A stretch of 64,000 bases of DNA from an uncultured Bdellovibrionales bacterium. GTDB taxonomy: Bacteria; Patescibacteriota; Minisyncoccia; Moranbacterales; UBA1568. The notes beneath the pieces were generated by a model. It worked only from the letters and a program-made list of their open reading frames with translations, searched no databases and had not been told where the DNA came from. The stretch covers positions 71,957 to 135,956 of the forward strand of contig CAZTBI010000001.1 in assembly GCA_964612055.1 (NCBI GenBank), written 5' to 3'. The position numbers and the translations under genes are program-made. Within the stretch, counting starts at the first letter, position 1. Each line of letters starts with the position of its first letter. This document shows, one piece after another, positions 46,049 to 64,000 of the stretch.

Positions 46049-46118
46049 AAGGTTTTTCGTGGTTGTCCAGAGGCATTTTTTTTGCTACCATAGTACAGTA
46101 AGCGTTGAAAAGAAGTGT

Positions 46119-46229
46119 ATGAGTTTTAGACGGTGGCACAAAAAGATCTATGCATTTTGGGTGGTTATTTCCGTGCTCGTAGTAGTATCGATGATTGGTT
46201 TTCTTTTTGCGCCGTTCTTCATGTATTGA
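46119..46229 (+). CDS. possible small single-TM membrane protein (36 aa)
   Basis: MSFRRWHKKIYAFWVVISVLVVVSMIGFLFAPFFMY, immediately upstream of the ftsB-like gene. Speculative. Confidence 0.25.
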   Translation: MSFRRWHKKIYAFWVVISVLVVVSMIGFLFAPFFMY

Positions 46230-46237
46230 GGTTGATT

Positions 46238-46630
46238 ATGACAGCGAAGTATTTGATGCGGGCAGGCGTTGTTATCATCGTTGCCTTGATCTCTTGGGCA
46301 GTGTATGTTTCTTCGAAGCAGCTTTCTCGGAATCAGCGGATTGAGGATGAGGTGAGCGCTCTCCAGGAAGAAGCCAACAAGATCAGTCGTGAAAACGAAA
46401 CCTTGACCGAAAAGATTCGCTATTTTGATTCCAATGATTTCCGTGAGCAAGAAGCAAAGGAAAAACTTGGCATGAAGAAGGCAGGGGAAGAGGTCGTGGT
46501 GATAAAATCATGGCAGCAAGATGAGGAGGAGGCATCACCGATAGACACCAAAGCAGCTTCCTTAGAGCAGATCGACGAACAGTCTCCGAATTATAAAAAG
46601 TGGTGGCATCTTTTCTTCAGCGAATTGTAA
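46238..46630 (+). CDS. septum formation initiator (FtsB/DivIC family)
   Basis: Single TM, coiled coil (EDEVSALQEEANKISRENETLTEKIRY), then a conserved E..AKEKLGM..GEEVV motif. Confidence 0.65.
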   Translation: MTAKYLMRAGVVIIVALISWAVYVSSKQLSRNQRIEDEVSALQEEANKISRENETLTEKIRYFDSNDFREQEAKEKLGMKKAGEEVVVIKSWQQDEEEASPIDTKAASLEQIDEQSPNYKKWWHLFFSEL

Positions 46631-46638
46631 ATATTTTT

Positions 46639-47685: not shown

Positions 47686-47744
47686 GAGTAGCTAAAAATA
47701 GAGTCACCTTGAGGGCTTATACTCATCCTTATCTTTTTCTTATG

Positions 47745-48977: not shown

Positions 48978-49016
48978 TACGGGAGATAATCTATTTAAAA
49001 GAAGATTGGCAACGAA

Positions 49017-49772
49017 ATGATTTTTCACCTTACTGTTTTTGTCTGGAGCTTAGCCTTTCTTGCTGGCCTTGAGGCGGTAGCACTCAATCCCATCTTTGCC
49101 TCTTGGAGTTGGTATCTTCTTTCTATTGGCGTGCTGGTCGCGATATCGCTCGGTGCCATTCGTCGTTTGACGGAGAATTCTTCAGATGCCTTTATTCCGA
49201 TTCTGCTTTCTCTCGCTTCGCCGACGCTCCTCTCGCTCGTCGATCATCCTGGTGAGCGGCAAGTGTTTGTTTTCCTAAGTGCGGTGATGTATTATTTCGC
49301 GCTCCTCGGGAACTACCGTCTCCACCATGCTCCTGCTGACAAAACGGGTGAGGCCTTTCTGAACTCAGCTGCGATGGCGGCCATGTTCTTCTTTTATGCC
49401 GGTCTGTACGGATTTTTTCTCAACTTCTCCTTTCCACTTTGGGGATTGATGCTTCTGTACTTTATTGGTACGGCACTGACCAGTTACGAGACGTTTATTA
49501 CCGTCGACAAGAAAGAACGCAAAAGAGTGATTCTCTACAGTGCGCTTCTCGGCTTTATCATGGGCGAGATGGTGCTCGTGATGAGTCTTTGGCCATTTGG
49601 GTACCTGACAACAGGGGCTCTCGGGACGATTCTTTTTTTCATCGCGTGGGATATTTCCTTTGATGCTTTTCGAGAGACGTTGTCATTGAAAAAGGCGATG
49701 ATTCGCATCCTATTTCTCATGATACTCGTCCTCCTTCTCCTTATCAGTTCTCCGTGGCGGATATTGGTGTAG
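49017..49772 (+). CDS. hypothetical polytopic membrane protein
   Basis: 251 aa with 6-7 predicted TM helices. No family recognised. Confidence 0.5.
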   Translation: MIFHLTVFVWSLAFLAGLEAVALNPIFASWSWYLLSIGVLVAISLGAIRRLTENSSDAFIPILLSLASPTLLSLVDHPGERQVFVFLSAVMYYFALLGNYRLHHAPADKTGEAFLNSAAMAAMFFFYAGLYGFFLNFSFPLWGLMLLYFIGTALTSYETFITVDKKERKRVILYSALLGFIMGEMVLVMSLWPFGYLTTGALGTILFFIAWDISFDAFRETLSLKKAMIRILFLMILVLLLLISSPWRILV

Positions 49773-49892
49773 AGCGTATTCTTGTTGTTCGTGACGGTTT
49801 TGCGATAGAGTTTCTTGGGAGTGAAAAATTACATACTTTTGGGGAGTTGTTTCCCAAAAATACCTTCCCTTTTCTTTTTAAGGAATTCCTAA

Positions 49893-50037
49893 ACCAAGCA
49901 ACCTCCCAAAGTACCGCTTGCTTGCCCCGGCGTGGCAAGCTGCTCTACGCTTCCACCCGCACTCTTTTTCTTCTGCCAGCTGGCAGAAGAAAAAACCATG
50001 CCCGTGCGGGCTCCAGAGTTACTTTGGAAGATTCTTG
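49893..50037 (+). repeat. structured intergenic repeat R1, copy 2
   Basis: Near-identical to 9562..9695 except that the P3 hairpin is extended (tttttcttctgcc-agc-tggcagaagaaaaa versus tttttcc-TTCG-ggaaaaa), with stem-preserving changes. Confidence 0.6.
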
Positions 50038-50091
50038 TTTAGGGATTCTCGGTATGCGCAGCGTTTTCGAAAATATTTTCATTTTCTTCAG

Positions 50092-50203
50092 CCGTGTCCT
50101 GTCGGTCACATTTGTCATGAGTGTACCGGTAACAGTCGAGCGTAATGAGTGGCTTCCGTCAGATAGCTCCCTGTTCGGCGAAGCGATTGAGAAATGTTCG
50201 ATA
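50092..50203 (+). repeat. intergenic repeat R2, copy 1
   Basis: About 112 nt. About 85% identical to the reverse complement of 59381..59497, with a shared core gtcggtNacatttgtNatgagtgNaccggtaacagtcgagcgtaa...agctccctgttcggc...gaaatgttcga. Confidence 0.55.
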
Positions 50204-50314
50204 GGACTAAAGGGGGAGAAAAGGGAACATATTTTTGAAAACGTACATACCATTTTTTGTTCAGAGGCATTTCTTGCCGAAAATGGTGAAATATGATAGA
50301 AGTAAAGCACTGTT

Positions 50315-51499
50315 ATGGCATCATTTTTCATCAAAAAAGCCCTTCTTTTCAGTTTTTTAGCCATCATCGTGCTCATCTTGGGCGGGGTGGGGGGTGTTTT
50401 TTTTGAGCGTTCACTGGTGCCGCGTTTGGCTGCTACAGAATACTTTGGGAACTGGGATATCTTCAAGAAAGCCGCAGAGCACGTGACGGTCATCAACAAG
50501 ACTGAGCAGATCGTGATCCGTGAAGATGATACCGTTGAAAGAATCGTTTCTCAGCCAGCAACGGCAGTGGTGAATATCGTGGCTTTGCCTGGGGTAAAGG
50601 GTGCGAAGGGGAGTACGGCCGCTTTGGGCGCAGCCGCAGAGACGGTCGTGACGACTACGGGTGTGCTGCTGACGAATGACGGTCTGGTAGCGACCTACAG
50701 CGAGCTTCCTTTTGATACTGAAAAGACAGAGTATTCCATCTTGCTTTACGATGGCTCGATCCACCAAGCGACGTTTGCTGGTCGAGACAAGTTGACGAAT
50801 CTTTCATTTTTCCGAGTGAGCGATGCTTCCAATACGCCGGCCATTGCTTTTGCAAATTCCGATGACGCACGCGTAGGAAGAAAGCTGATTGCGATCGGGA
50901 ATACATTTGCGGAATATCAGAATCGTTTGGCCGTAGGTATCCTTTCCAATATCAATCGCATCTTCAATCTTTCTGGAAAAACGGTTGCTTCCTCAGAAAA
51001 GTGGGAAGGAGTCTTTGAGATGGATCTGGCTAGACCAGAATCGTTCGTCGGTGGTCCGGTGATCGGTTTCAATGGGGAGATGGTTGGTATCGTAGGAACA
51101 CTCGCCATCAACAATACACTCCAGTCGTTTGTCATTCCATCGAATGTGGTGCGCGATGCTCTTAATCGTCTGATCGCTGGGACATTGGAGAGGCGGCCGA
51201 TTCTTGGTGCGTACTATCTCTCGATTACGAAAGCTTTGGCACTGGGTCAAGGTCTCGCTCGTGATCGTGGGGCGCTTGTCTATTCGCGCTCTGGTTCCAC
51301 TGGTCTTGCCCTGATCGCTGATTCACCGGCCATGAAGGCTGGGATTCTGGCAGGGGATATTATTATCTCGGTAAACGGTACCGAAGTGAATCTCGACAAT
51401 CCGCTCCCAGAGATACTGTCACGCTTCAATGTTGGCGACACGCTTTCTCTGGTCATTCTCCGCAACAATGAGGAGCGGACCATCGAAGTGAAACTGTAA
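50315..51499 (+). CDS. HtrA-like pseudo-protease with PDZ domain (catalytic His and Ser substituted)
   Basis: Trypsin-fold/PDZ architecture aligns with the neighbouring HtrA. The His motif reads TNDGLV and the Ser motif reads ESFVGGPV (no GNSGGP). Confidence 0.7.
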   Translation: MASFFIKKALLFSFLAIIVLILGGVGGVFFERSLVPRLAATEYFGNWDIFKKAAEHVTVINKTEQIVIREDDTVERIVSQPATAVVNIVALPGVKGAKGSTAALGAAAETVVTTTGVLLTNDGLVATYSELPFDTEKTEYSILLYDGSIHQATFAGRDKLTNLSFFRVSDASNTPAIAFANSDDARVGRKLIAIGNTFAEYQNRLAVGILSNINRIFNLSGKTVASSEKWEGVFEMDLARPESFVGGPVIGFNGEMVGIVGTLAINNTLQSFVIPSNVVRDALNRLIAGTLERRPILGAYYLSITKALALGQGLARDRGALVYSRSGSTGLALIADSPAMKAGILAGDIIISVNGTEVNLDNPLPEILSRFNVGDTLSLVILRNNEERTIEVKL

Positions 51500-51520
51500 A
51501 TCTCTTCTCAAAAATACTGA

Positions 51521-51551
51521 AAAAAGAGGCTTGGTATAGCCTCTTTTTTGC
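51521..51551 (+). terminator. rho-independent terminator
   Basis: agaggct-tggtat-agcctct followed by TTTTTTG, 25 nt after the stop of the HtrA-like gene. Confidence 0.65.
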
Positions 51552-51564
51552 TATCTCTAGGACA

Positions 51565-51593
51565 TTGACTTTTATACTAAAAAGTGATATAAT
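51565..51593 (+). promoter_or_regulatory. sigma70-type promoter TTGACT-17-TATAAT
   Basis: Perfect -10 and near-perfect -35 with 17-nt spacing. It drives the GC-rich ORF at 51706 through a roughly 105-nt leader ending in a strong AAGGAG SD. Confidence 0.65.
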
Positions 51594-51705
51594 AGTAGGT
51601 CGTTGATTTTGTCGACGACGAGCACGTTTACAAGAAGAATAAGCATTCATCAATCTGGGCATCAGCCCATCATCAACGAGCGTTTGAGCTCACAAGGAGT
51701 TTGAC

Positions 51706-53034
51706 ATGGCACCACTGCCAGTTGATAAGATCCCGACTCATACCGGGTTCCATTTCGATGAGGTCCTGGGGATTTTCCAGATGTGGAATTATCCGCAGCA
51801 TTCCGAACCGCTTTTCCCTGGCATCAGCAACGCCAGTGTGGTTTTCTGGAATGCCGGCCGCAAGACGCCGGATGGCTACTACGCTGACGAAGGCTGGATC
51901 CGGAAGAATCGGATGTGTCCTGTCGGTTGTGGCGGCAGCATCTTTGACGAGCACCCCAAAGAAGAAGAGTCTGAGGAAGAGGAGCGCCTTCGTCCACAGA
52001 CCTGCGCGGCCCTGTTGGTTGCTCAGAAGCTCGGCATCGATCAGTTGCCACGGCTCCAGTCCTGCCTCCGATTCGCGGTGGAAGTCGATAACAATGCGAC
52101 GGATCATCCGCACAGCATTGCTGCGACCATCAAGAAGCTCCACAACAACCGTGAGACGACGCCGGGTCATGTCAGGAAGTGGGTGAAGGATCCGGAACAG
52201 GCAAAGAGGATCAAAGAACTCCTCCAGCGTCGGATCTCGATCGGTGATGTGTTCGAATGGGTGCAGCAAGGGATCTACGCCAAGATGTGCGAACAACCCC
52301 AGACCGACGACTTCACGATCGAAAAGATCGGTGAACTCATGCAGCTGCAAGGCATGCATGAACCGTTTTCGGCTGAGGACTGGTTGCGCATCGGCACTGA
52401 TGCGATGGAGCTCGATCAGTTGCTTTTTGACACGGTGACGGCTGAGCAGTACCAGGCGTTCAAGACCATTGTTCCTTTCCGAGGAATCGGCAGAGGGAGC
52501 AAGGTCATGGACATGAAGATCGCCGTAGTTCCGTCGGATGATGTGCGCATCGATCGTTACGCCCGATCAAAGTTGGGCGATCAAGTAGCGGTCACCGTCA
52601 TCAAAAGGTCGACTGGCAACATCGTCGTCATGGTGAACAAGTATTACGGTCTCCGTACCTATGACATCGCTCGGGCGATCAAGACGGAAGAATGTCTCAT
52701 GAGAGGCATCGAACTTCCGCGCTGGGATCAGATGAGGCGGCAGCTTCAGCACAGTGTGTGGTACTACCATGCGCCGGGCGGCAACCTCTTTAATGGGGCC
52801 AAGACCTCGCCGGATACGCCGCCGACCGTAATCCCGCTGCCGAGGATTGTCCAGTTGGTGAAGATGGCAGTTTCGTCTGAGGCGTTCGAATCGTCTCGGA
52901 GCGAATGCTGCCTGCAGGGGATCTGCAGTTCGACTCCACGGCAACCCTGTTCGTGGTACAAGTACGGCCTGTCCCGTTGTCAGACAATCCGCTTTGAAGC
53001 ACGACGTGACGCGGAGGCCGAGCTGAATAAGTAG
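51706..53034 (+). CDS. hypothetical protein (442 aa) encoded in a GC-rich island; possible horizontally acquired gene
   Basis: It is the only ORF spanning the whole island. It has a strong SD (AAGGAG 7 nt upstream) and its own promoter and terminator. GC is visibly higher than flanking DNA, with many spurious all-frame ORFs. No family recognised. Confidence 0.55.
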   Translation: MAPLPVDKIPTHTGFHFDEVLGIFQMWNYPQHSEPLFPGISNASVVFWNAGRKTPDGYYADEGWIRKNRMCPVGCGGSIFDEHPKEEESEEEERLRPQTCAALLVAQKLGIDQLPRLQSCLRFAVEVDNNATDHPHSIAATIKKLHNNRETTPGHVRKWVKDPEQAKRIKELLQRRISIGDVFEWVQQGIYAKMCEQPQTDDFTIEKIGELMQLQGMHEPFSAEDWLRIGTDAMELDQLLFDTVTAEQYQAFKTIVPFRGIGRGSKVMDMKIAVVPSDDVRIDRYARSKLGDQVAVTVIKRSTGNIVVMVNKYYGLRTYDIARAIKTEECLMRGIELPRWDQMRRQLQHSVWYYHAPGGNLFNGAKTSPDTPPTVIPLPRIVQLVKMAVSSEAFESSRSECCLQGICSSTPRQPCSWYKYGLSRCQTIRFEARRDAEAELNK

Positions 53035-53053
53035 GTTCCAAGCAACATTGAAA

Positions 53054-53096
53054 GACCCGAAAGACGAGAAACATCGTCCGGGTCTTTTTTCTTTGA
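53054..53096 (+). terminator. rho-independent terminator
   Basis: agacccg-(19 nt loop)-cgggtct followed by TTTTTTCTTT. Confidence 0.55.
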
Positions 53097-53122
53097 CCAA
53101 AAGGCCAATTTCGGCTATGATG
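53094..53122 (+). promoter_or_regulatory. sigma70-type promoter TTGACC-17-TATGAT for proS operon
   Basis: Good -35 and -10 hexamers with a 17-nt spacer, 20 nt upstream of the proS ATG. Confidence 0.55.
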
Positions 53123-53142
53123 AAAGAAATTTAGCCTATTTT

Positions 53143-54378
53143 ATGAAACAATCACACCTGTTTACCAAGACTAAAAAAGAAGCTCCAAAGGATGAAGTGA
53201 GCCGCAATGCCCAGTTATTGATTCGGGCTGGCTATGTCTACAAAGTGATGGCGGGAGTCTATGCCTATACGCCACTTGGTCTGCGGGTGCTCGAGAACAT
53301 CAAGCGAATTGTCCGCGAGGAGATGAACACTATTGGCGGACAGGAGCTGATCATGACCAATCTGCAACGGAAAGACACCTGGGAGGTGACGGGACGCTGG
53401 AGTGATGAGGCGGTCGATGTGTGGTTCAAGACAAAGCTCCAAGATGGGGTGGAGCTCGGACTGGCTTGGAGTCACGAAGAGGCTATCATGGAAATGATGC
53501 AGCAGTTTGTGGAAAGTTACAAAGATTTACCGATCAGTGTCTACCAGTTCCAAACCAAACTGCGGAACGAACTGCGTGCCAAAAGCGGCATCATGCGTGG
53601 TCGTGAATTCGTGATGAAAGATATGTACTCGCTCCATGCGACAGAAAAGGACATGGATCAGTACTATGAGCGAGTTATCGAAGCGTACAAAAAGATCTAT
53701 CAGCGGCTTGGTATTGGTGATGAGACGTACGTGACCTTTGCGAGTGGCGGCGCTTTTACGAAGTTCAGTCATGAATTTCAGACGATTTGTACTGCTGGTG
53801 AAGATGTCTTGTATGTGAATGCCGACAGGACGGTGGCGGTCAATGAAGAAGTGCTCGATGATGCGACACAGGAGCTTGGTGTCGATAAAAAAACGTTGTC
53901 ACCAGTAACCACCGCGGAGGTCGGAAATATCTTCAAATTTGGTACGGAGAAGAGTGATAAGATGCATGTTGTATACAAGGATGCCGAAGGAAAGCAGCAA
54001 CCGATATATCTTGCTTCCTATGGAATCGGAATCACGCGTGTCATGGGGGTGATTGTAGAAAAGTTTTCTGACGATAAGGGCCTGGTATGGCCGGAGGCGG
54101 TAGCGCCGTTTCAGGTGCATTTGCTTTCGCTTGGAGCTGATGAAAAGGCAACCGAGATCTATGAGACACTGACCAAGGCTGGTATCGAGGTACTGTATGA
54201 CGATCGTGATCTTTCCGCTGGTGCTAAATTCGCTGAGAGTGACCTCTTGGGAATTCCGTGTCGGATCGTCGTTGGGAAGCGTTCTCTCGAGTCTGGTAAA
54301 GCGGAGGTGAAGAAACGGACCGAAGGGGACGCTACCGAAGTAGCCTTTGATGATCTCGTTTCGTTGTTTAGAAAATAA
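53143..54378 (+). CDS. proS: proline--tRNA ligase (short form without INS editing domain)
   Basis: N-terminus LFTKTKKEAPKDEVSRNAQLLIRAGYVYKVMAGVYAYTPLG. Class II motifs and a C-terminal anticodon-binding domain. 411 aa. Confidence 0.85.
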   Translation: MKQSHLFTKTKKEAPKDEVSRNAQLLIRAGYVYKVMAGVYAYTPLGLRVLENIKRIVREEMNTIGGQELIMTNLQRKDTWEVTGRWSDEAVDVWFKTKLQDGVELGLAWSHEEAIMEMMQQFVESYKDLPISVYQFQTKLRNELRAKSGIMRGREFVMKDMYSLHATEKDMDQYYERVIEAYKKIYQRLGIGDETYVTFASGGAFTKFSHEFQTICTAGEDVLYVNADRTVAVNEEVLDDATQELGVDKKTLSPVTTAEVGNIFKFGTEKSDKMHVVYKDAEGKQQPIYLASYGIGITRVMGVIVEKFSDDKGLVWPEAVAPFQVHLLSLGADEKATEIYETLTKAGIEVLYDDRDLSAGAKFAESDLLGIPCRIVVGKRSLESGKAEVKKRTEGDATEVAFDDLVSLFRK

Positions 54379-54396
54379 CTTCTCAGTATACTTCGC

Positions 54397-55122
54397 ATGA
54401 ACGCTCATCAGAAAAAAGAACGGATCATCATTTCGCTCGGGGGATCGCTTTTGGTTCCGGAAAGTATTGATGCGGAGTTTGTCGGAAATTTCAAAAAGTT
54501 CATCGTTTCTCATATTAAAAAAGGGTATCGTTTTATTCTCGTGACTGGTGGTGGAAAAACAGCCCGGCGCTATATTGAAGCCGCTGGGCAGGTGACCAAA
54601 ATTACTGATGAGGATCGTGATTGGCTGGGTATTCATGCCACCCGTATGAATGCTCACTTGGTGCGTACTATTTTCCGTGAATATGCTCACCCGCGGATCA
54701 ACACCAACCCACACGACCTCGAAGATTTTTACTCAGCGCCGGAGCCGATCTTGGTGGCGGCTGGCTGGCGCCCGGGCTTCTCAACGGATTTTGATGCGGT
54801 GGTCATCGGAAAGTATCTCGATGTGAAGCGTATTATCAATTTGTCGAACATCGAACGTGTCTACGACAAGGATCCGCGTCTCCATGCTGATGCCACGCCG
54901 TATGACCACATGACTTGGAAAGGGTTTCGCAAAATCGTCGGGAGCAAGTGGAATCCAGGCATGAACGTGCCGTTTGATCCGATTGCTTCGCAGATGGCCC
55001 AAAAAGAGGGCATGGAAGTGGCTATCATGAATGGTGGCGACCTGAAAAATGTTACCAACTATGTTGCCGGGAAACCATTTATTGGCACTCTGATCAAGGA
55101 TGAATCTGAAACGACTGAGTAA
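54397..55122 (+). CDS. pyrH: uridylate kinase (amino-acid-kinase fold, archaeal-type PyrH)
   Basis: IIISLGGSLL...ILVTGGGKTARRY...VAAGWRPGFSTD are amino-acid kinase family motifs consistent with UMP kinase. Confidence 0.7.
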   Translation: MNAHQKKERIIISLGGSLLVPESIDAEFVGNFKKFIVSHIKKGYRFILVTGGGKTARRYIEAAGQVTKITDEDRDWLGIHATRMNAHLVRTIFREYAHPRINTNPHDLEDFYSAPEPILVAAGWRPGFSTDFDAVVIGKYLDVKRIINLSNIERVYDKDPRLHADATPYDHMTWKGFRKIVGSKWNPGMNVPFDPIASQMAQKEGMEVAIMNGGDLKNVTNYVAGKPFIGTLIKDESETTE

Positions 55123-55139
55123 CGATCGAAACGGATACT

Positions 55140-56108
55140 ATGGAAACAGTGAAAAAGATATTACTGGCATCTCCGAGAGGATTCTGCGCTGGAGTGGCTC
55201 GTGCCGTCAAAGCGGTAGAAGATACGCTTGAAATTTTCGGTGCGCCAGTCTATGTGAAGCACGAAATCGTGCATAATAAGCACGTGGTGAAGGATTTGGA
55301 GGGGAAGGGTGCCATCACCATAGAAACGCTTGATGAAGCTCCGGAAGGGGCGGTAGTGGTTTTTTCAGCTCACGGTTCGCCACCTCGGCACTATGCTGAG
55401 GCGAAGGCGCGTGGTATACGCCTCATTGACGCCACCTGTCCTTTGGTGACCAAGGTGCATCTCGAGGTGCAACGTTTTATCAAAGACGGTTACCAGATTA
55501 TTTATATTGGACACAAAGGGCATATCGAGGGCGTCGGTGTGTTGGGGGAAGCGCCCGGAGTAGAGATTCCTTTGATTGAAACCGTAGAAGATGTCTTGGG
55601 ACTCGAAATCGGCAATCCGGAAAAACTCGTGTATCTGACGCAGACGACTTTGTCACTTGATGATACGAAATCAGTTATTGAAGCACTGAAAAAGAAGTAC
55701 CCACAGATTATCGCGCCACCACTCGAAGATATCTGCTATGCGACGACCAATCGCCAGACAGCGGTAAAGGAGCTCGCCAAGGAATGCGAGTTGGTGCTGA
55801 TTGTTGGATCGAGATCGTCTTCCAATTCAACTCGTCTCATGGAAACAGCCAATGCCTATGGTTCTATCGCCTATCTCGTTGATGATGCTACGCACCTTGA
55901 TCCACTGTGGTTCAAAGAAGTGGAAGTAGTCGGTATCAGTGCGGGCGCCAGTGCCCCTGAACATTTGGTGCAAGATATTGTGCAGCGCATCATGTCTCTG
56001 AGTAAAGCGTCTGTCGAAGAGTTCATCGTCAAACCAGAAACCATGAAGTTTGTCGAACCGCTGGAACTTATGAAGATTCGTGCTGAAAAGAAAGTCTCTC
56101 AAGTATAA
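55140..56108 (+). CDS. ispH: 4-hydroxy-3-methylbut-2-enyl diphosphate reductase
   Basis: SPRGFCAGVARAV...IVHNKHVV...SAHGSPP...ATCPLVTKVH is the IspH/LytB signature with three Cys. Confidence 0.9.
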   Translation: METVKKILLASPRGFCAGVARAVKAVEDTLEIFGAPVYVKHEIVHNKHVVKDLEGKGAITIETLDEAPEGAVVVFSAHGSPPRHYAEAKARGIRLIDATCPLVTKVHLEVQRFIKDGYQIIYIGHKGHIEGVGVLGEAPGVEIPLIETVEDVLGLEIGNPEKLVYLTQTTLSLDDTKSVIEALKKKYPQIIAPPLEDICYATTNRQTAVKELAKECELVLIVGSRSSSNSTRLMETANAYGSIAYLVDDATHLDPLWFKEVEVVGISAGASAPEHLVQDIVQRIMSLSKASVEEFIVKPETMKFVEPLELMKIRAEKKVSQV

Positions 56109-56112
56109 CTCT

Positions 56113-57228
56113 ATGCGTGTCGCCATTCAGGCTTCAGATCTGGATCATAGCCGTATCGATGGCACGCGTGTCTATCTCCGTGAATTACTTAAGCGTTTTG
56201 GAGTGCTTTCTCCCGAGACCGAGTTTGCTTTGTATCACAAAAAGACTTTTAATCCGGTTCTCGCGCCACCGGAATTTTCCAACTATTTCGTACGGACACT
56301 TTCGTTCCCGATCGCTTGGATGCAAACTAGGTTTGCCTGGGAACTTTTTCGGACAAAACCGAAGAAGTTATTTCTGCCCATTCAGGCTGCCCCGGTTTTT
56401 CTTCCAAACTCGGTCGAAGTCACGGCCACCATTCATGATCTCGCGTTCAAGCGTTACCCTGCAACCTTTCCCAAGAGGGATCTTTTCAAGCTTAATTTTA
56501 TGCTTGAAACAGCAGTGAAACGCGCTGATAAATTGATTGCTGTTTCAGAGTCAACGAAACGCGATCTCTTGGAATTTTTCCCAAAGCTAGCGCCATCAAA
56601 GATCCGGGTTATTCATCATGGTTTTGATGGTGAATTTTTTGGTACTCGAGTTTCTCAAGAGGAACTTGCTTCCAGACTTAAAAAATATCAGCTTCATGAA
56701 AAGGACTACTGCCTCTATGTCGGCGCTCTTCAACCAAGAAAGAATCTCACACGATTGATTCAGGCATTTGAACAGGCCAAAAAGGCAGTGCCAGAAATGA
56801 AACTGGTCTTGGCAGGGGAGGCGGCCTGGTTGGCGGAAAGTATTCTCACGGTGCGGGAGAAAAGTGTCTATCGAGAGGATATCCTTTTGATGGGTAGGGT
56901 GTCGTTTGAAGATGTGCGAGCGCTCTATCAAGGGGCCCGCTTGTTTGTGTTTCCATCTTTGTACGAGGGTTTTGGCTTACCGATTCTCGAAGCTTTTGCT
57001 TCAGGGGTTCCAGTACTCACAGCGAGTAACTCCAGTCTGACCGAAGTAGCGGGCCGTGCAGCGCTCTACTGCAATGCTGAGAGTGTTCCGGATATTGCAG
57101 AGAAATTGGAGTATCTTTGGAGAGATGAGGCGCTCCGCAAGAACTTGGTTGCTCGAGGAACGGAACAATTGAAGCATTTTTCCTGGGAAAAGTGTGCCAA
57201 GGAGACGCTCGGGTACATTCTTTCCTGA
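56113..57228 (+). CDS. glycosyltransferase family 4 (GT-B)
   Basis: The C-terminal domain has E(x7)E-type motifs (FVFPSLYEGFGLPILEAFASGVPVL). Confidence 0.85.
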   Translation: MRVAIQASDLDHSRIDGTRVYLRELLKRFGVLSPETEFALYHKKTFNPVLAPPEFSNYFVRTLSFPIAWMQTRFAWELFRTKPKKLFLPIQAAPVFLPNSVEVTATIHDLAFKRYPATFPKRDLFKLNFMLETAVKRADKLIAVSESTKRDLLEFFPKLAPSKIRVIHHGFDGEFFGTRVSQEELASRLKKYQLHEKDYCLYVGALQPRKNLTRLIQAFEQAKKAVPEMKLVLAGEAAWLAESILTVREKSVYREDILLMGRVSFEDVRALYQGARLFVFPSLYEGFGLPILEAFASGVPVLTASNSSLTEVAGRAALYCNAESVPDIAEKLEYLWRDEALRKNLVARGTEQLKHFSWEKCAKETLGYILS

Positions 57229-57229
57229 C

Positions 57230-57258
57230 TTGATTTTTGCCTCAAAAGAAGCTAGAAT
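57230..57258 (+). promoter_or_regulatory. sigma70-type promoter TTGATT-17-TAGAAT
   Basis: Immediately after the GT4 stop, driving the GC-rich ORF at 57312 (GGAGG SD 6 nt upstream of its ATG). Confidence 0.55.
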
Positions 57259-57311
57259 AGATCGCAAGATGAAGAGTCCTTTTGAAGGGTTATGCAAATA
57301 CGGAGGTTGCA

Positions 57312-57749
57312 ATGCAACGAGTTTTTACGCTTGATGGACAGCTCAGCGTTCCGGTGGAGCCTTCCGTCGAGGCGCTTCTCGAAGAAGTCGCAGGCCTGGT
57401 GGATGCGGTGTGTAGTTTCAATCGATACAACCCGCTGATACAGATGTGGTTTGCCATCGGTCCTGGCGCCAAGGACGAAGCCTACAGGAACGCCCAAAAG
57501 ATCTACGGCCTTCCTGATGTCGCCGATGAAGAACGGGAAAAGCCACATGGTCTGGTCTTTTTCTGGTCGAGGATCCGGGATCTGCTCGAGTCCGAACTGG
57601 ACAGATTGCGCAAGACGGTGGAGCCGTGCGATCATCCGTTCCTGGTGACGATGCCTCATCGAGAGGGTGGTGGCGAACCAAATGGGGATTTCATTTCCCC
57701 GGGCGAAGGGCCTTACGATCCCTTGGCGATCCATCCTTTTGCCGAATGA
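57312..57749 (+). CDS. hypothetical protein (145 aa) in a second GC-rich island
   Basis: ATG with a strong SD, its own promoter and a terminator (57764..57803). GC is markedly above flanks. No family recognised. Confidence 0.5.
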   Translation: MQRVFTLDGQLSVPVEPSVEALLEEVAGLVDAVCSFNRYNPLIQMWFAIGPGAKDEAYRNAQKIYGLPDVADEEREKPHGLVFFWSRIRDLLESELDRLRKTVEPCDHPFLVTMPHREGGGEPNGDFISPGEGPYDPLAIHPFAE

Positions 57750-57763
57750 CGATGTTCTTCTGA

Positions 57764-57803
57764 GCGACTTATGGCCAATGGTCAGAAGTCGTTTTTTCTT
57801 TCC
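57764..57803 (+). terminator. rho-independent terminator
   Basis: cgactt-(15 nt)-aagtcg followed by TTTTTTCTTT. Confidence 0.55.
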
Positions 57804-57867
57804 CCTTGCAATTCCGAGAAATTCGTGTCACAATACTTCTGCTCCATTTCGGAGCTTTTGTTGAAAT

Positions 57868-59325
57868 ATGGCCAAAGATAACGTCGTTCTCAGATTTGAT
57901 AAAGTGTCCTTCGAATACGGGCACAAAAAGCCTATTTTAGATGAGGTGAGTTTTAGCATGCGCAGTGGCTCCAAGATCACGCTCATGGGACAAAACGGCG
58001 CTGGTAAAAGCTCGCTTTTTAAGCTCATCACTGGTGAAGAAAAACCACAGAGCGGGCGTATTTCTCTTGATAGGGATGCTGTGGTAGCTATCGGTCGCCA
58101 GACGATTCCGCGCGATCAGCTCGATATGACAGTGGAAGATTTTTTCCAACAGTTTTTTCATGAGAAGAAGTGGAACCTTCCCGCTTTGATCAAGGATGTT
58201 TTGGAAGTGGTCAATCTGCCGGTGCCGCCGCTTGAGAAAAAGATCCGTCAATTTTCTGGTGGTCAGCAGGCACGCTTGCTTCTTGCCTCAGCACTTATTC
58301 AGGATCCAGACATCCTGCTCCTTGATGAACCGACCAACAACCTTGATTACGCTGGTATCTCACACCTGACGCAGTTTCTGATCGATTACAAGAAGACGGT
58401 TATCGTCATTTCTCACGATGCGGAGTTTTTGAATGCTTTTACCGAGGGCGTGTTTTACCTTGATGTTTTCACTCATCAAATTGAGCAGTACACGGGTAAC
58501 TACTATGACGTGGTAGAGGAGATCGCTAGACGTATTGCCAAGGCGCAGAGCGAAAACGTTCGTTTGGAGCGTACCATACAGGAAAAGAAAGATCAGGCGA
58601 ACGTCTTTGCCAACAAAGGAGGAAAGCTCCGTGCTGTCGCGAAGCGGATGCGTACATTGGCTGAAGAGCTTGAAGAGAACAAAGTCGACGTCCGTCGTGA
58701 AGATAAAACACTTTCTCCTTTTGAAATTTCTACCAATGATGTCGTGGGACCGATTGTGAATATCAAAACGGTTTCGGTTTTGGGTGAGTTTGGTCCCAAT
58801 ATCAAACGAGTTGACATGATACTGAAGAAAAATACTCACCTCGTTGTCTCTGGTCCAAACGGTATTGGCAAGAGCACGTTTCTCGAAGAATTGGCGACGG
58901 GCAATACCGAACGCGCTGAAATTACACCGGGCGTGAAAGTCGGTTACTACCGCCAGGATTTCTCGACGCTTGATTTTGATAAAACAGTAGCAGAGACGCT
59001 CCTTGCTTCACTTCCAGAGAAGAATACTGAATTGGCCTACAAAGTGGCAACGAAATTTCTGGTGCCGTCTGAGCTCCTCCAGAACAAAGTCGCCAGTCTT
59101 TCAGAGGGACAGAAGGGACTCCTTATGTTTGCCTGTCTCTACGCCGAAAAGCCAGACCTTCTCATTCTTGATGAACCGACAAACCATATCAACTTTCGTC
59201 ATTTACCAGTGATTGCTGAGGCGCTCGACAATTACAAAGGCGCTCTGATACTAGTTTCCCACGTTCCAGACTTTGTAGCGCAAATCCGCATCGACGAAGT
59301 GTTGGATTTGGAATCTTTGAGCTAG
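57868..59325 (+). CDS. ABC-F family ATPase (two tandem ABC domains, no TMD)
   Basis: Two Walker A motifs (GQNGAGKSSLF, GPNGIGKSTFL), two LSGGQ-like signatures (FSGGQQARL, LSEGQKGLL) and two Walker B motifs (LLLDEPTN, LILDEPTN). Confidence 0.88.
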   Translation: MAKDNVVLRFDKVSFEYGHKKPILDEVSFSMRSGSKITLMGQNGAGKSSLFKLITGEEKPQSGRISLDRDAVVAIGRQTIPRDQLDMTVEDFFQQFFHEKKWNLPALIKDVLEVVNLPVPPLEKKIRQFSGGQQARLLLASALIQDPDILLLDEPTNNLDYAGISHLTQFLIDYKKTVIVISHDAEFLNAFTEGVFYLDVFTHQIEQYTGNYYDVVEEIARRIAKAQSENVRLERTIQEKKDQANVFANKGGKLRAVAKRMRTLAEELEENKVDVRREDKTLSPFEISTNDVVGPIVNIKTVSVLGEFGPNIKRVDMILKKNTHLVVSGPNGIGKSTFLEELATGNTERAEITPGVKVGYYRQDFSTLDFDKTVAETLLASLPEKNTELAYKVATKFLVPSELLQNKVASLSEGQKGLLMFACLYAEKPDLLILDEPTNHINFRHLPVIAEALDNYKGALILVSHVPDFVAQIRIDEVLDLESLS

Positions 59326-59380
59326 GTGTTGTTAGGCCTGACTTCGGAGAAGATTTAATTTTTCTGACCACTTTCGTTTC

Positions 59381-59497
59381 GTCGAACATTTCTGACTCGT
59401 TCTGCCGAACAGGGAGCTAGCCGCTCGAAACCATCGCGTTACGCTCGACTGTTACCGGTTCACTCATCACAAATGTTACCGACGGCACACGGGATGC
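59381..59497 (-). repeat. intergenic repeat R2, copy 2 (inverted)
   Basis: Its reverse complement aligns along its length with 50092..50203. It lies between convergent genes. Confidence 0.55.
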
Positions 59498-59567
59498 AGA
59501 AAAATCAAACCTTTCCTTCGCTATACTCGGGTATTTCGGCCGTATTAGATTTTCTATGCGGCCTTGA

Positions 59568-60014
59568 TTATTTTTCCTTTTCGAAAAATATGTTCCAGAA
59601 AAGGTAGCCGGCGAGAAAGAAGCCGGCGATGAAGACAGGAATGAGGAGTGGGGGAAATTTGATGAGTGAGACTGAGAGGATGCCAACTGCCCAGAAGATA
59701 CCGAGCCACAGAAGGGGGCTCTTTTTTGTGATGTTCCAGGAAAATGAAAGATTGAGGTAGCGCCCGAGGAGGGCGGTGGCGAAAGTGGAGAGCGTGAGGA
59801 TGAGCAAGAACTTGGCGAGGCTGAAACGTGTGGTTACGAACGTTGGGAGGAGTGTTTCAATGGTGAAGAAGCCGGCAAAATAGAGGTAGCCGATGATAAG
59901 AGCTTCAACAGCGAGGGCATAGACGATATGGAGCGCTCCAGATGTGCGCCACTTTTCGAGAGAAGGGGTGAGTTGCTTGAATAAGAAATCCATAAGAGTG
60001 TTTTTAGGCGTCAC
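59568..60014 (-). CDS. hypothetical small polytopic membrane protein
   Basis: 148 aa with 4 TM helices. Overlaps the upstream gene by 11 nt. Confidence 0.5.
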   Translation of the reverse strand: MTPKNTLMDFLFKQLTPSLEKWRTSGALHIVYALAVEALIIGYLYFAGFFTIETLLPTFVTTRFSLAKFLLILTLSTFATALLGRYLNLSFSWNITKKSPLLWLGIFWAVGILSVSLIKFPPLLIPVFIAGFFLAGYLFWNIFFEKEK

Positions 60015-61155
60015 CGAAGCGAGCGAGTAAACGTTGCTTGATTTTTGAGAGAAGCGTCATTAAGTTCTCTTGATTCTTGGCGGTTTCAAAGGAAACAGAG
60101 AGGGCACTTATTTCAACGCTAGTTTTTTGATTGGTGATTTGGAGCTCGAAATCATTACCGAAGCCCGGAGTGAGGGTAGTGATAGGGGTGGTACAGGCAA
60201 GTTTGGTACTGAAAATATTGGGCAAAAGAGAACAATGAGCAGATTGTGTACTTGCCTGTGTCGAGACGATTATTGGATGCTTGTCTGTAACGAGGAAGTC
60301 TCGATAGGTGCCAGGAAGGAGCGGTCGCTTCGTTCCTTGGTCAATCAGGTAGTAACTCTCATTATCTTGGTCGAAAAGAACTGTACCGTCAGGATGAGCG
60401 GCGCCGAGGAGAAAAATCCGGCCACGTTTGTATACCCCCAGTTCTTCTTCGCTCGCTTCGATGACGTCCTGGAAGTCATAGCCCAGTGCCAGGAAAATTT
60501 CAGCACTTCCTACTGGACGGGCTTCGGTTTCACTGGTCACTACAAAGACGCCCATGGCATTGGCGAGAAGCGACCCGATACGGAAACCAAGCCACTCTTC
60601 TGACACAGGGTAACGTTCGAGGAGTGTATCATCAGATGCTTCGGCGTATTCTTCGGGAAAGCGGGAGAGATAGGCTGCTTCGCTTACGAAGGGGAAGAGG
60701 GTGTCGCTGCGAAGAGCGTAATAAGTGCCGTCAATGACGTACAGATTTTCTTTTGGGAAGTCAGTGACTGGGGCGCCAGTCGGGTAGAAGAAGCTCTGAT
60801 AGGAGCGGCGTAGGGAAAAATCGAGTGTTTCCGGTACGGCAGAATTCTTTTCCAGGGTGACGCTTGCTTTGACGAGTGAGAAGTCGCCAACGACGGCAGT
60901 GTCTGCGACCAGGGTTCCGCCCTGTTCAATTTTGCCGTTGCTGCGGTCAGTATTATCTGGAGAGCGTGGCAGGAGGATGGTGTTTTTACTGGCGCTGGCT
61001 GAGCGAAAATCAAAACCTTGCTCGATGGTTGGGAAAAAGACATTGAGAGCGAGTAGAATCGTCAGGATGATGATTCCAAGATAGAGGAGGGCGCGGAGCT
61101 TGTGATAGCGACTCTGCCAGTGTTCCGGGATGACGATCGGTGAGGGGAAAAACAT
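60004..61155 (-). CDS. hypothetical membrane-anchored protein
   Basis: 383 aa with an N-terminal TM anchor and a large extracytoplasmic domain. No family recognised. Confidence 0.5.
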   Translation of the reverse strand: MFFPSPIVIPEHWQSRYHKLRALLYLGIIILTILLALNVFFPTIEQGFDFRSASASKNTILLPRSPDNTDRSNGKIEQGGTLVADTAVVGDFSLVKASVTLEKNSAVPETLDFSLRRSYQSFFYPTGAPVTDFPKENLYVIDGTYYALRSDTLFPFVSEAAYLSRFPEEYAEASDDTLLERYPVSEEWLGFRIGSLLANAMGVFVVTSETEARPVGSAEIFLALGYDFQDVIEASEEELGVYKRGRIFLLGAAHPDGTVLFDQDNESYYLIDQGTKRPLLPGTYRDFLVTDKHPIIVSTQASTQSAHCSLLPNIFSTKLACTTPITTLTPGFGNDFELQITNQKTSVEISALSVSFETAKNQENLMTLLSKIKQRLLARFGDA

Positions 61156-61164
61156 AGAGCGGTG

Positions 61165-62952
61165 TTAGTAAATTTGAAAGAGGAAGTTCTTAGTTTCAGG
61201 GCTGATTTTTTCCGGGAGACGGAAAGGTACTTCTTCGGAGAGGGTGATATTTTCGAGCTGCTCCAAAGAAAAGGTGAAGGATTTTTTGAATACCAGGCGA
61301 TCACCAAAGACTGCGGCATAACGACCCTGACTTTCTTCTGGTGTCAGGAGGTAGATGTGATCAAAATGTGTCGTGTCGAGGGCAGAAAGGTCGTAAGGGT
61401 TGAAGAAGTAAACGGTATTCTTTCCGAAGAGGAACTGGCCGGGACCAGAAAGCATGAAGAAGCCGTTTCCGGTAGCGTTCTGATCAACTAGGATGAGATC
61501 TTTGTCCGAAAATTCCTGGCTGAAAAGAGCGATCTGATCTTTCAGTCCGCGTCCTTCGGCGAAGGTAAGCTGCGTGCTCCAGGCAGGGTACTGGAGAAGA
61601 ATGAGACCAAGAAAAATAATCGTCACGAGAAGAAGTCTTTTCCCCCTTGGTTGTTCGAAGAGGGAAGTTTTTTCTTTGGCGAAAAGGAAAGCTATGCCTA
61701 CGACAGCTGAAAAGAGGAGGGTCGGAAAAAGTGAGAAGAGATAACGCCTGAGCATCCAAGGATGATCAGGGGTAATATTGGGGTGGAAAAGATAGAGAAA
61801 GGTTGGGAGAGCGATGAAAGTGGGAATCAAGAGGAGCCAGCGTTTTTTCTTGAGAAAAAGAAGGATGCCGAAGAATCCGAGGAGGGCGAGAGCCAGTAAT
61901 CCGTAGAGAAAAAAGATGGAACCGAGGCCAAGTGATGCGCCTTGTTCGATGACGCTTTCATTTGAGCCTGAAAAGCCACGAAGAAATTTGAAGAGCGCTT
62001 TCCCGATCATCTTGTAGTAAGGGAGGTTGATGAAGAAGTCGCGCAAGAAAAAGAACGTAAAAAGAAGTCCTGGAATGACGATGCTTTTCCAAGGATAGGT
62101 ACGGAAGATGGCCCGAGTATGAGGATGAAGAGCGATGAGTAAAAGAGCGAGACCAAGGAAAGCAAACCCCTCAATTCGAGTAAAGGCAAAAAGGGCTCCA
62201 GAGAGTAGGATGCCAGCATAGAAAAGAAATTTTCCCTCACGAAAGAAGAGGACGAGATTGTAGACGAGAAAAATAAAGAGGAAGACAGCCAGGTTTTCGG
62301 TCAGAGTAATTTTGGCGAACCAGCTTGGGAGGAAAGAGGTCATGGCAAGGAGGAGTCCAGCTCCCGCATAGTAGGGGTGAACAAAGAGGCGCAAGAGTTG
62401 ATAGAAAAAGAAAAGCGCGAGGAAGAGGAGTATGGCATTGCCGATGGCGAATCCATGTATCCCAAAGAGTGAGACGAAGCTTCCAAGCCAGGCGGTATAA
62501 CCGAGTGGAAATTGGGTCAGAAGATAACCCTCTTTGGTATACGCGAAGCCAGGGAAGTTGAGGGCGGTCCCAGCGCCATAGATCTGGAAGAAGCTGTCGC
62601 TTGCCGGGGTAGAAAAGGCGAGTTCGGTGTTTTGAGCTAAACGATAGGCGGCCTCGGCGATAGAGCCCTGGTCGCGGCCAGAGAACAAGGTTGGTTCGGA
62701 AACGAATCCAACAAAGACAGCGTAGAGGAGAGTGGTAATAAAAACAACACGGAGATCGAGTGCCGCGAAACGAATGAGTTTGAAGGAGATGAGAAAAACG
62801 AGCGTGGCAAAAAGAACGAATCCAGTCACGAGGAGTGGAAAGAGAAAAAGGCTACCAAGTGTCAGACAGAAAGCAAACCACCCGAAGACGACAAAAGAAA
62901 GTCCGAAGAGCGCGATGAGACTGTCGGTTTTTTCGAGGGAAAGAAGTTTCAT
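61165..62952 (-). CDS. GT-C fold glycosyltransferase (ArnT/PMT, GT39/GT83-like) polytopic membrane protein
   Basis: About 12 TM helices with a periplasmic C-terminal domain. The architecture is typical of undecaprenyl/dolichyl-phosphate sugar transferases. The start is set at ATG MKLLSLEK (the ORF extends to 63078). Confidence 0.55.
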   Translation of the reverse strand: MKLLSLEKTDSLIALFGLSFVVFGWFAFCLTLGSLFLFPLLVTGFVLFATLVFLISFKLIRFAALDLRVVFITTLLYAVFVGFVSEPTLFSGRDQGSIAEAAYRLAQNTELAFSTPASDSFFQIYGAGTALNFPGFAYTKEGYLLTQFPLGYTAWLGSFVSLFGIHGFAIGNAILLFLALFFFYQLLRLFVHPYYAGAGLLLAMTSFLPSWFAKITLTENLAVFLFIFLVYNLVLFFREGKFLFYAGILLSGALFAFTRIEGFAFLGLALLLIALHPHTRAIFRTYPWKSIVIPGLLFTFFFLRDFFINLPYYKMIGKALFKFLRGFSGSNESVIEQGASLGLGSIFFLYGLLALALLGFFGILLFLKKKRWLLLIPTFIALPTFLYLFHPNITPDHPWMLRRYLFSLFPTLLFSAVVGIAFLFAKEKTSLFEQPRGKRLLLVTIIFLGLILLQYPAWSTQLTFAEGRGLKDQIALFSQEFSDKDLILVDQNATGNGFFMLSGPGQFLFGKNTVYFFNPYDLSALDTTHFDHIYLLTPEESQGRYAAVFGDRLVFKKSFTFSLEQLENITLSEEVPFRLPEKISPETKNFLFQIY

Positions 62953-63076
62953 ATCGCTTTTAGTATACCTCAAAAGGGGCATGTCTTTCAATTCTTTTCC
63001 TGTTTGCCAATGGCCGGTTGAGAGGTTACAATACAGAGAAAAGAATAGGCAGGTCTGTTTTTGTCTCGACCCACTC

Positions 63077-64000
63077 ATGAATCGATATTTTTTTCTTTGG
63101 TACTACACAAAAGGACTTTTTTCTTCCGGGACACTTTCCTGGAATCTGGTTCGTTTTGTCGTCTGGAAGTTTCATATCTTTGGCCTTCTCGCTACGCTTA
63201 TTTCTCCGTGGAAGAGAGACGTGACATTCAAGGATTGGCGTGGGCTGCATCCGGTGAAGTCGCTCCAACTCATCTTTGAAAATCTCATTTCTCGTTTTCT
63301 CGGGATGATGCTCCGTCTCGTGGTGATCGGAGCGGGTATTGTCGTCTTGGTACTGGTTTTGATTTCGAGTCTGGCAGCGTTTCTTTTGTATACGCTTGCG
63401 CCGCTGTCTCTTGCTTTTGGAATAGTGTTTCTTTTGATGGCGCCGACCTTTGGGATAGTGCTCCTTGCGGCTGGTATTGTTGGGGTGATGGCGGCCTTTG
63501 TCGGATACCTGTTTCGTGAGCAGGATGAGCCAGAGACGACAGACATGGCGAAGCTTTGTCACCGACCTTGGTTTGAGAGGCTCTTAGGGAGATTAGGCCT
63601 TGAAAAGAAAGAACTTGGCAGGGAGCTTTTGACCGATACCGAAGCTTTTGTCGATTATCTTACTTCTTTGGGTCTCAATCGGGAGATATTCGAACAAGCG
63701 GTCTTGATAGAACGGACTGCCGCCTTGGCGCGCGCCAGGAAGGGACAGTTTCTTTCTTGGGAGAACCTTCACAAGAGCACGCCTATCGGCAAAGGTTGGC
63801 AGTATGCCTATACGCCTCATCTCGATCGCTACTCTCTCGATCTCTCGGCCTTTGATCCGACGGAGTACCGGAATCTTGTTTTGGTCGGAAGAGAAGACGA
63901 GTTGCGAGTGGCAACCCTAGTATTGGAACGGCCAGCGCAGAACAGCGTCTTTTTGGTCGGTGACCCTGGTATTGGCAAGAAGACGTTGGTGCATCATTTG
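63077..64000 (+). CDS. membrane-anchored Clp/Hsp100-like AAA+ ATPase (3' truncated by window edge)
   Basis: Open frame with no stop to the window end. N-terminal 4-TM domain. ...NLVLVGREDELRVATLVLERPAQNSVFLVGDPGIGKKTLVHHL parallels ClpA/B/C D1 (VIGRDEEI...NPVLIGEPGVGKTAI). Confidence 0.6.
   Translation, partial: MNRYFFLWYYTKGLFSSGTLSWNLVRFVVWKFHIFGLLATLISPWKRDVTFKDWRGLHPVKSLQLIFENLISRFLGMMLRLVVIGAGIVVLVLVLISSLAAFLLYTLAPLSLAFGIVFLLMAPTFGIVLLAAGIVGVMAAFVGYLFREQDEPETTDMAKLCHRPWFERLLGRLGLEKKELGRELLTDTEAFVDYLTSLGLNREIFEQAVLIERTAALARARKGQFLSWENLHKSTPIGKGWQYAYTPHLDRYSLDLSAFDPTEYRNLVLVGREDELRVATLVLERPAQNSVFLVGDPGIGKKTLVHHL

Follow-up and report, generated by a model that had tools for sequence, protein, structure and literature searches.

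The window examined here is a stretch of 64,000 nucleotides from a genome of the Candidatus Moranbacteria lineage (Patescibacteria, Candidate Phyla Radiation, CPR). Our subject is a small GC-rich gene at 57312–57749, which encodes a protein of 145 residues and lies between the genes for a GT4 glycosyltransferase and an ABC-F ATPase. We consider it likely that it is a clade-restricted accessory gene, placed in a fixed slot, ancient within its clade and with alleles that are exchanged, and that its product is a binding protein. Whole alleles are exchanged between strains through homologous recombination, and the crossovers fall in two conserved places, the first 33 codons and the promoter region of the ABC-F gene. 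Among related genomes the cassette is present, absent or replaced by a second family (family B). The small protein would act through binding, in the context either of ABC-F and the translation machinery or of inter-genomic conflict. All features described lie on the + strand of the window unless stated otherwise, and homologous loci from other genomes carry L numbers.

The cassette and its slot

The small gene appears to be a self-contained monocistronic cassette, made up of a predicted promoter, a Shine-Dalgarno sequence, the open reading frame (ORF) and a terminator. The sigma-70-type promoter at 57230–57258 (TTGATT at 57230–57235, a 17-nt spacer and TAGAAT at 57253–57258) begins 2 nt past the GT4 stop codon (TGA, 57226–57228). 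Our promoter scan returned 2 promoter-like sites for 0.9 expected, and a single match of this kind is not above chance. The −35/−10 pair was found at the same position in L001 (identical), L005–L007, L012 and L016; it reads TTGACT-17-TATAAT in L006 and L007, and TTGACT-17-TATAAT or CATACT across the L005–L007 set. The Shine-Dalgarno sequence GGAGG (57302–57306) stands 5 nt before the ATG at 57312, with ACGGAGG retained in L001 and L005–L007 and purine-rich equivalents in L012 and L016. The coding sequence ends with TGA at 57747–57749 and is followed by an intrinsic terminator (57762–57801), formed by an interrupted hairpin at 57762–57794 and then TTTTTTCTTT. Its fold has an energy of −16.5 kcal/mol (z = −2.46 against shuffled sequences). 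A simple terminator scan had missed this hairpin because its stem is interrupted by an internal bulge. At this position a hairpin and T-run are present in every aligned orthologue (L001, L005–L007, L012), the stem being of another sequence. The transcription unit is credible because the −35/−10 spacing and the positions of the ribosome-binding site and terminator are kept across genomes, and the cassette fits exactly between the GT4 stop codon and the promoter of the ABC-F gene, which is of a housekeeping type. The earlier note had described the TTGATT-17-TAGAAT promoter just past the GT4 stop, the GGAGG ahead of the ORF, a terminator after it, and the placement between a glycosyltransferase (Pfam Glycos_transf_1) and an ABC-F ATPase gene. 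All of these were found as described, the terminator being an interrupted hairpin, and the three signals are conserved in relatives.

The same note took the ORF for an ORFan, which it is not. We found 13 homologues, all in uncultured Moranbacteria-type genomes. Five of them came from a search of 5.8 × 10⁹ protein clusters and share 59–95% identity with the small protein in the best local alignment; one, from a Candidatus Moranbacteria metagenome-assembled genome (MAG), is annotated merely as a hypothetical protein. The 8 others are cluster representatives with 24–43% identity. An exhaustive profile search of 1.84 × 10⁹ cluster representatives gave just 9 matches at E ≤ 1 × 10⁻³. Additional members of this family (family A) are present in the GTDB loci L016, L018, L026–L028 and L044. 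The 14-member alignment has the core motif W..AY..AQ..YGLPGAS.EER.SPEG.L.FW and invariant residues L29, W46, A57, G66, P68, G80, W85 and L92, none of which is typically catalytic. The small protein had no match in scans of Pfam, NCBIfam, PHROGs and PADLOC, nor had any of the 14 family A members in Pfam, and no RNA family was detected by Rfam in 56900–58100. Family A is a small, undescribed protein family, confined to one crown clade of the Moranbacteria lineage.

Nei-Gojobori estimates of the ratio of nonsynonymous to synonymous substitutions (dN/dS) were 0.23–0.47 for all pairs, and pN was lower than pS in the + frame in every pair. This frame was the sole frame open in all 9 orthologues. The ratio (omega) of the small gene, about 0.25–0.4, compares with 0.01–0.08 for its neighbours. 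Judged from these sequence comparisons, the ORF is a real gene under purifying selection that evolves far faster than the genes around it.

With the highly conserved ABC-F gene as anchor, we surveyed the slot in 79 loci of GTDB species representatives; most of them, including all those used in the slot analysis, were from Moranbacteria-type genomes. The order GT4 then ABC-F is widespread. About 20 genomes have an empty slot, with a gap of 65–270 bp between the two genes, and in L021 the ABC-F promoter starts at most 10 nt past the GT4 stop codon. A crown clade of the ABC-F tree has a gap of about 500–840 bp that contains one + strand ORF of 108–145 codons, and only within this clade is the slot filled. 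The order GT4, small gene, ABC-F was found in L001–L004, L007, L012 and L016, and the same slot position is occupied in L001–L008, L012, L016 and L018. The occupant is of the window type (family A) in L001, L012, L016 and L018. Family A also stands directly upstream of ABC-F in L026–L028 and L044, and in L028 and L044 a P-type ATPase gene replaces GT4 on its other side. With these two upstream contexts, ABC-F is the constant neighbour of family A wherever the context is visible.

In L011, L014, L015, L019, L022 and L025 the slot is taken by ORFs of family B (107–118 codons, 13 database members, consensus LFQEAQ..A..LRGV.EAK.L..LLVPQD..ATL), which have the orientation of family A and, like it, a raised GC. 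Comparison of the A and B profiles with hhalign gave E values of 0.04–0.067 and a probability of about 1%, which did not reach significance even with enlarged profiles, the match being colinear and limited to the first ~57 residues; the 107-codon slot ORF of L011, which we had considered as a diverged member of family A, was not retained as such, since hhalign was not significant. A and B are mixed at the tips of the ABC-F tree, where L018 (A) is sister to L019 (B). Presence and absence are cleanly separated inside the clade between L021 (empty) and L022 (B), whose flanks are 88–92% identical. The slots of L017 (4650–5000), L024 (4615–5000) and L084 (4645–5000) are 351–386 bp long with only ORFs of 53–65 codons; these slots of intermediate length may be decayed remnants of the cassette.

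Taken together, the distribution points to a cassette that is old and specific to the clade, and that has since been lost, kept or replaced, instead of one recently inserted. The earlier note had spoken of an insertion between the two genes. This stands in an evolutionary sense, as about 20 genomes have the slot empty, and falls as a recent event, the gene being syntenic in relatives.

Allele exchange between strains

Evidence for the exchange of alleles was obtained by comparing the window with L001, a MAG contig. The two are 95.5–96.7% identical in blastn blocks 50915–57410, 57787–59333 and 59568–63999, and 57410–57787 fails to align. The gap delimits an allele-replacement tract (57411–57787), which comprises the body of the ORF from codon 34 and the terminator hairpin. 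In these genomes, which are about 97% identical, the small proteins share only ~51% of their residues. The left breakpoint falls after codon 33, inside the strongly conserved segment EPSVxALLEEVAGLVD, and the right one at the terminator T-run and ABC-F promoter. From codon 34 to the end of the gene, pS was 0.73 (saturated) and dN 0.69, as compared with a dS of 0.07–0.20 and a dN of at most 0.014 for neighbour genes. Because the tract is saturated and the dS of the neighbours low, the two alleles are much older than the two genomes. The divergence in the tract includes indels and all base types. The difference between the window and L001 is an allele replacement or an ancient polymorphism, and goes beyond fast protein evolution. 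In comparisons with the more distant L005 and L007, the dS of the small gene (0.59–1.09) was below that of its neighbours (1.2–1.5).

Further evidence came from identical alleles. The exact window protein was found on 8 contigs from 6 sequencing runs. L098–L101 share with the window a tract of ~1.1 kb (~57040–58140) with 0–2 mismatches, in flanks that differ by 5–6%, and the window allele itself is 99.8–100% identical in these loci.

We found no second copy (template repeat or paralogue) of any part of 57229–57867 within the window. A diversity-generating retroelement target was considered and rejected: there is no template repeat, the differences comprise indels as well as all base types, and the same allele persists from sample to sample.

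Predicted protein and rival explanations

An AlphaFold2 model built with 14 sequences predicts a helical-bundle core at residues 17–102 (57360–57617), with helices at 19–36, 41–47, 51–65, 72–75 and 78–102. Block means of the predicted local distance difference test (pLDDT) are 75–89 across residues 21–100, and all the invariant residues, which are of the types L, W, A, G and P only, lie within this core. The C-terminal tail, residues 103–145 (57618–57746), is rich in Pro, Gly and Glu and predicted to be disordered, with block means of 41–55 over residues 101–145 and values below 50 at residues 106–108, 111–133 and 143–145. It repeats short motifs (DHPF / YDPL, HR..GDF, G.Y.P...PF), which recur despite indels, its length and sequence differing between allele classes. 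With a pI of 4.66 the protein is acidic, and neither a signal peptide nor a membrane segment was evident on reading its sequence; we infer a cytoplasmic location. Foldseek against the PDB with a 6-sequence model gave nothing below an E value of 2, and a sequence-profile search of the PDB returned only a designed coiled coil (E = 0.003). Fold searches return only generic helical bundles, at noise level and non-specifically. The profile searches of this protein and of the other GC-rich ORF proposed in the earlier note yielded nothing meaningful among PDB sequences.

From the model and the nature of the invariant residues, the small protein is probably a non-enzymatic binder of another macromolecule, that is a modulator, an adaptor or an inhibitor. 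ABC-F or translation is one candidate target, because the small gene remains next to ABC-F when another gene takes the place of its upstream neighbour. The other candidate is a role in conflict, of an immunity-like or anti-defence-like type, because of the polymorphism in presence and in alleles.

Several observations weigh against an exchanged gene for a binding protein. There is no sequence or fold match above noise to indicate a function. Across the allele swap the ABC-F protein is 99.8% identical, GT4 97.6% and the 442-residue product of the second GC-rich ORF 99%, so none of these three shows a sign of co-evolution with the small protein. No sign of positive selection was found, overall dN/dS being below 1. 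Finally, the divergence forms a mosaic over all of the 4 kb compared. Recombination is accordingly widespread in this population, the slot being its most extreme case, and the identical tract around the slot may not be special.

The small gene could instead be a polymorphic conflict gene, an immunity-like, anti-defence or host-interaction factor under balancing or diversifying selection. The varying presence of the cassette, the two families in the slot and the deep allele classes would then be accounted for. It would agree with ancient allele classes in strains that are ~97% identical, with identical alleles on diverged backgrounds, with the mixing of A and B at the ABC-F tree tips and with an omega 5–20 times that of the neighbours. 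On the other hand, dN/dS nowhere reaches 1, neither a toxin partner nor a defence gene adjoins the cassette, neither PADLOC nor PHROG gives a match, the fold matches are non-specific, and recombination is general in this population. We regard this explanation as possible but unlikely. To a more elaborate version we give little credence: the slot would be a dedicated polymorphic locus of an episymbiotic CPR clade, with interchangeable inhibitor-like proteins (A, B and null alleles) kept under balancing or frequency-dependent selection and shuffled by recombination. The product might then act against phages or host defences, or might modulate ABC-F or the ribosome in a strain-specific way.

Capsule and O-antigen loci, pilin genes and immunity-gene cassettes are known strain-variable slots that are exchanged through conserved flanks. 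The present slot resembles them in the sharp divergence edges within conserved flanks, in the diverged alleles of close genomes, in the identical alleles on diverged backgrounds and in its presence/absence polymorphism. It differs from them in being a single cassette of ~0.6 kb for one small cytoplasmic protein; the product is neither a surface protein nor secreted, a partner gene is lacking, and positive selection is not in evidence. As to the PezA/epsilon antitoxins and the "immunity protein" 4nsr, the fold scores of the small protein are at noise level and equal to those obtained with designed coiled coils. No toxin gene adjoins the small gene, its protein has neither sequence similarity to them nor a match in PADLOC or Pfam, and its assignment to the small helical antitoxin or immunity proteins is unsupported.

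That the small protein assists or regulates the translation ATPase ABC-F, encoded downstream, seems improbable to us. Family A stands directly upstream of ABC-F, in the same orientation, in both the GT4 and the P-type ATPase contexts, and the right-hand recombination edge falls inside the ABC-F promoter. The two genes are nevertheless separate transcription units, the terminator of the first being followed by the conserved promoter of the second. In most Moranbacteria the same ABC-F gene is found and the small gene is lacking, and the proteins do not co-vary (99.8% identity for ABC-F where the small protein has 51%).

The resistance ABC-F genes msr, vga, lsa and vmlR have leader ORFs or attenuators upstream, and such leader peptides, whose length ranges from a few codons to a few tens, work in cis on the transcript to which they belong. 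The present arrangement is like theirs in having an ORF and then a terminator directly upstream of an ABC-F gene, and unlike them in that the ORF encodes a 145-residue protein under purifying selection and ABC-F has a separate conserved promoter. The small gene is far too long and too constrained for a leader peptide, and we rejected an ABC-F leader peptide or attenuator on its length, its dN/dS (0.23–0.47) and the succession of terminator and distinct promoter.

The remaining alternatives concern base composition, which is atypical. The GC content of the small ORF is 0.559, against a mean of 0.477 (sd 0.029) for the 59 long ORFs of the window (+2.8 sd), and only 1.7% of 438-bp segments reach it. 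By codon position, GC1 is 0.671 (+2.3 sd), GC3 0.603 (+1.5 sd) and GC2 0.404 (+0.9 sd); P, E, D and G are high in the protein, and K, I, T and S low. Because the excess is spread over the codon positions, part of it is due to amino-acid composition. The only ORF with a similar GC content (0.561), these two being the richest of the 59, is one of 442 codons at 51706–53034, and its excess is mainly at GC3 (0.693). Synonymous codon usage of the small ORF correlates best of all with that of this 442-codon ORF (r = 0.56; mean 0.12, sd 0.14 for the other 57 genes) and poorly with the background (r = 0.17). Its dinucleotide signature is ordinary (rank 19 of 59). The earlier note had attributed to the small ORF the compositional anomaly of 51.7–53.0 kb, and GC rank and codon usage agree with this. 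Of the comparison of compositional signatures that it proposed, codon usage came out as shared, and the ordinary dinucleotides did not set the small ORF apart.

The 442-codon ORF belongs to a separate uncharacterised family, with 14 homologues plus distant members at 24–46% identity; a metagenome scan with its alignment gave only 6 loci. Its protein, without match in Pfam, NCBIfam, PHROG, PADLOC or PDB sequences, is 99% identical in L001 (dN 0.006). The sequence suggests a metal-dependent enzyme, because the invariant residues include T11, H12, D18, D81, E82 and H83 and the C-terminus has a cluster of four cysteines (C402, C407, C415, C425). We also considered an MYG1/DHH-like hydrolase, from its motifs THxGxHFDE and G.S.FDEH, and dropped it as neither Pfam nor PDB supported it.

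The earlier note had suggested, as one of two possibilities, that the two GC-rich genes form a two-part system such as toxin and immunity. In such a system the small protein would be the immunity, antitoxin or regulatory partner of the 442-residue protein. This we hold to be very improbable. The genes do share a codon-usage bias, both proteins lack Pfam matches and are restricted to related clades, and the small protein weakly resembles small helical immunity or antitoxin proteins in its fold. Moreover, empty-slot genomes with enough sequence upstream of proS have no 442-codon homologue there. Yet the genes are 4.3 kb apart and in separate transcription units, the small gene being autonomous, with proS (ProRS), pyrH (UMP kinase), ispH and GT4 between them. 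The larger protein is 99% identical where the small one is 51%, the opposite of a cognate pair. Co-occurrence, which the note had proposed to check, is not consistent: the seven 442-family loci L009, L010 and L093–L097 (24–46% identity) have different surroundings, with a preceding DUF8128/TrwB-like ATPase gene in L009 and L010, and no family A or B gene within 10 kb, and in the L011 and L092 type the partner in the slot is family B, not A. No PADLOC or toxin-antitoxin family match was obtained either. L011 and L092 nevertheless place the 442-codon gene in lineages that bear a filled slot, and the two genes appear to be additions of roughly the same clade, with weak co-occurrence.

Highly improbable, too, is a recently acquired mini-island, both GC-rich ORFs having been imported from a donor of higher GC and not yet ameliorated. 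It would account for their rank as the GC-richest two of 59 genes, for the similarity of their codon usage and for the slot being empty in many Moranbacteria, and some Moranbacteria genomes, at 53–59% GC, would be possible donors. However, the slot is not empty in close relatives, only in more distant clades of the ABC-F tree. In relatives whose neighbour genes are down to ~70–90% identical, both genes keep their synteny and an equally high GC, and the values of the L001 orthologues are those of the window. At every host locus examined, the GC content of family A, family B and 442-family genes exceeded that of the remainder of the locus by 2.5 to 14.5 points, over backgrounds of 0.46–0.57. Nothing near the cassette suggests mobility: there are no tRNA genes in 45000–64000, the search for flanking repeats gave only chance-level repeats, and no mobility gene is found among the neighbours proS, pyrH, ispH, GT4 and ABC-F. 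Searches by tblastn of phage and plasmid collections and a scan of IMG/VR returned no relatives of the small protein, and its ordinary dinucleotide signature also speaks against a foreign origin. The common foreign source that had been proposed for the two genes does not agree with their synteny in L001, L011 and L092, nor with their raised GC at all host loci.

The slot genes are GC-rich in all hosts examined, as a lasting property and not as the trace of a recent import; an excess that persists is not expected of un-ameliorated foreign DNA. It may be due to amino-acid composition, to a constraint intrinsic to the families or to GC-biased gene conversion at a place of recombination. Bacterial genes that recombine tend toward higher GC3 (Lassalle et al. 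2015, PMC4450053). Against gene conversion stands the 442-codon gene, which is equally GC-rich and gives no signal of recombination between the window and L001 (dS 0.075).

The last alternative, that the ORF is spurious or that the real gene is an antisense ORF of 160 codons at 57252–57734, can be set aside: long chance ORFs are common in GC-rich segments and the antisense frame runs without a stop in the window, L005, L006 and L008, but it is interrupted by 1–4 stops in five orthologues (L001, L007, L012, L016 and L018), in all of which the + frame is open with pN below pS, and the conserved promoter, Shine-Dalgarno sequence and terminator are all on the + strand, in a region with no Rfam match.

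Neighbouring genes and significance

The upstream border of the slot is the GT4 glycosyltransferase gene (56080–57228; Pfam Glycos_transf_1, 4.5 × 10⁻³⁰), whose product was compared above with that of L001. Called mechanically, its ORF starts with GTG at 56080, has 382 codons and overlaps ispH by 29 nt; the gene calls of most relatives start at the ATG equivalent to 56113, which gives 371 residues.

The downstream border is the ABC-F ATPase gene (57868–59325), with two Pfam ABC_tran domains. Its best NCBIfam match is a ribosomal-protection-like ABC-F model, under the cut-off of that model, and the protein is 91% identical in L012. The gene has its own promoter and a hairpin in its 5' untranslated region (57806–57860). 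The promoter consists of TTGCAA (57806–57811), a 17-nt spacer and an extended −10 element, TGT-CACAAT (57826–57834), and is invariant in all aligned relatives. The hairpin, GCTCCATTTCGGAGC (57841–57855), then TTTTG, to 57860, contains the sole GGAG before the ATG and is invariant in all of them except L012. In the empty slot of L021, the ABC-F promoter comes right after the GT4 stop, and a hairpin is found at the same place with a different sequence. The hairpin may serve the translational or attenuation control of ABC-F.

A second variable, non-homologous spacer was observed beyond ABC-F, at 59326–59567. It measures 242 bp in the window, 463 bp in L001, where it contains an ORF of 93 codons (L001 8465–8746), and ~205 bp of unrelated sequence in L098, the flanks being identical. 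With variable spacers on either side, ABC-F is bracketed by two variable slots. Further downstream, a 383-codon ORF on the − strand (60004–61155) has no Pfam match and matches phrog_9616, of unknown function, at 3.8 × 10⁻⁹. The adjoining − strand ORFs of 637 and 148 codons had no family match.

The feature is of a familiar kind, a clade-restricted uncharacterised accessory gene, and what is mildly unusual is the cleanly bounded slot, which is exchanged by recombination and filled in some genomes and empty in others. Like the conserved hypothetical genes of CPR (Patescibacteria) genomes, the small gene is short, belongs to no Pfam or NCBIfam family, is limited to one candidate phylum and lies among housekeeping genes. 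It differs from them in having a defined transcription unit, a history that can be traced in a fixed slot, and replaced alleles in near-identical strains. Taken alone, it is an ordinary uncharacterised accessory gene, in a phylum in which genes without a known function make up a large share. The analysis nonetheless brings a correction, namely that a GC-rich, well-punctuated small ORF among housekeeping genes need be neither a foreign island nor one component of a two-part toxin system. A second gain is the definition of a small new protein family and of a cleanly bounded cassette, exchanged by recombination, in a population of uncultured Patescibacteria. The data offer a handle for studies of strain-level recombination, and possibly of GC-biased gene conversion, in these organisms. 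If the polymorphism is selected, the small gene would be a candidate conflict or translation-modulating factor.

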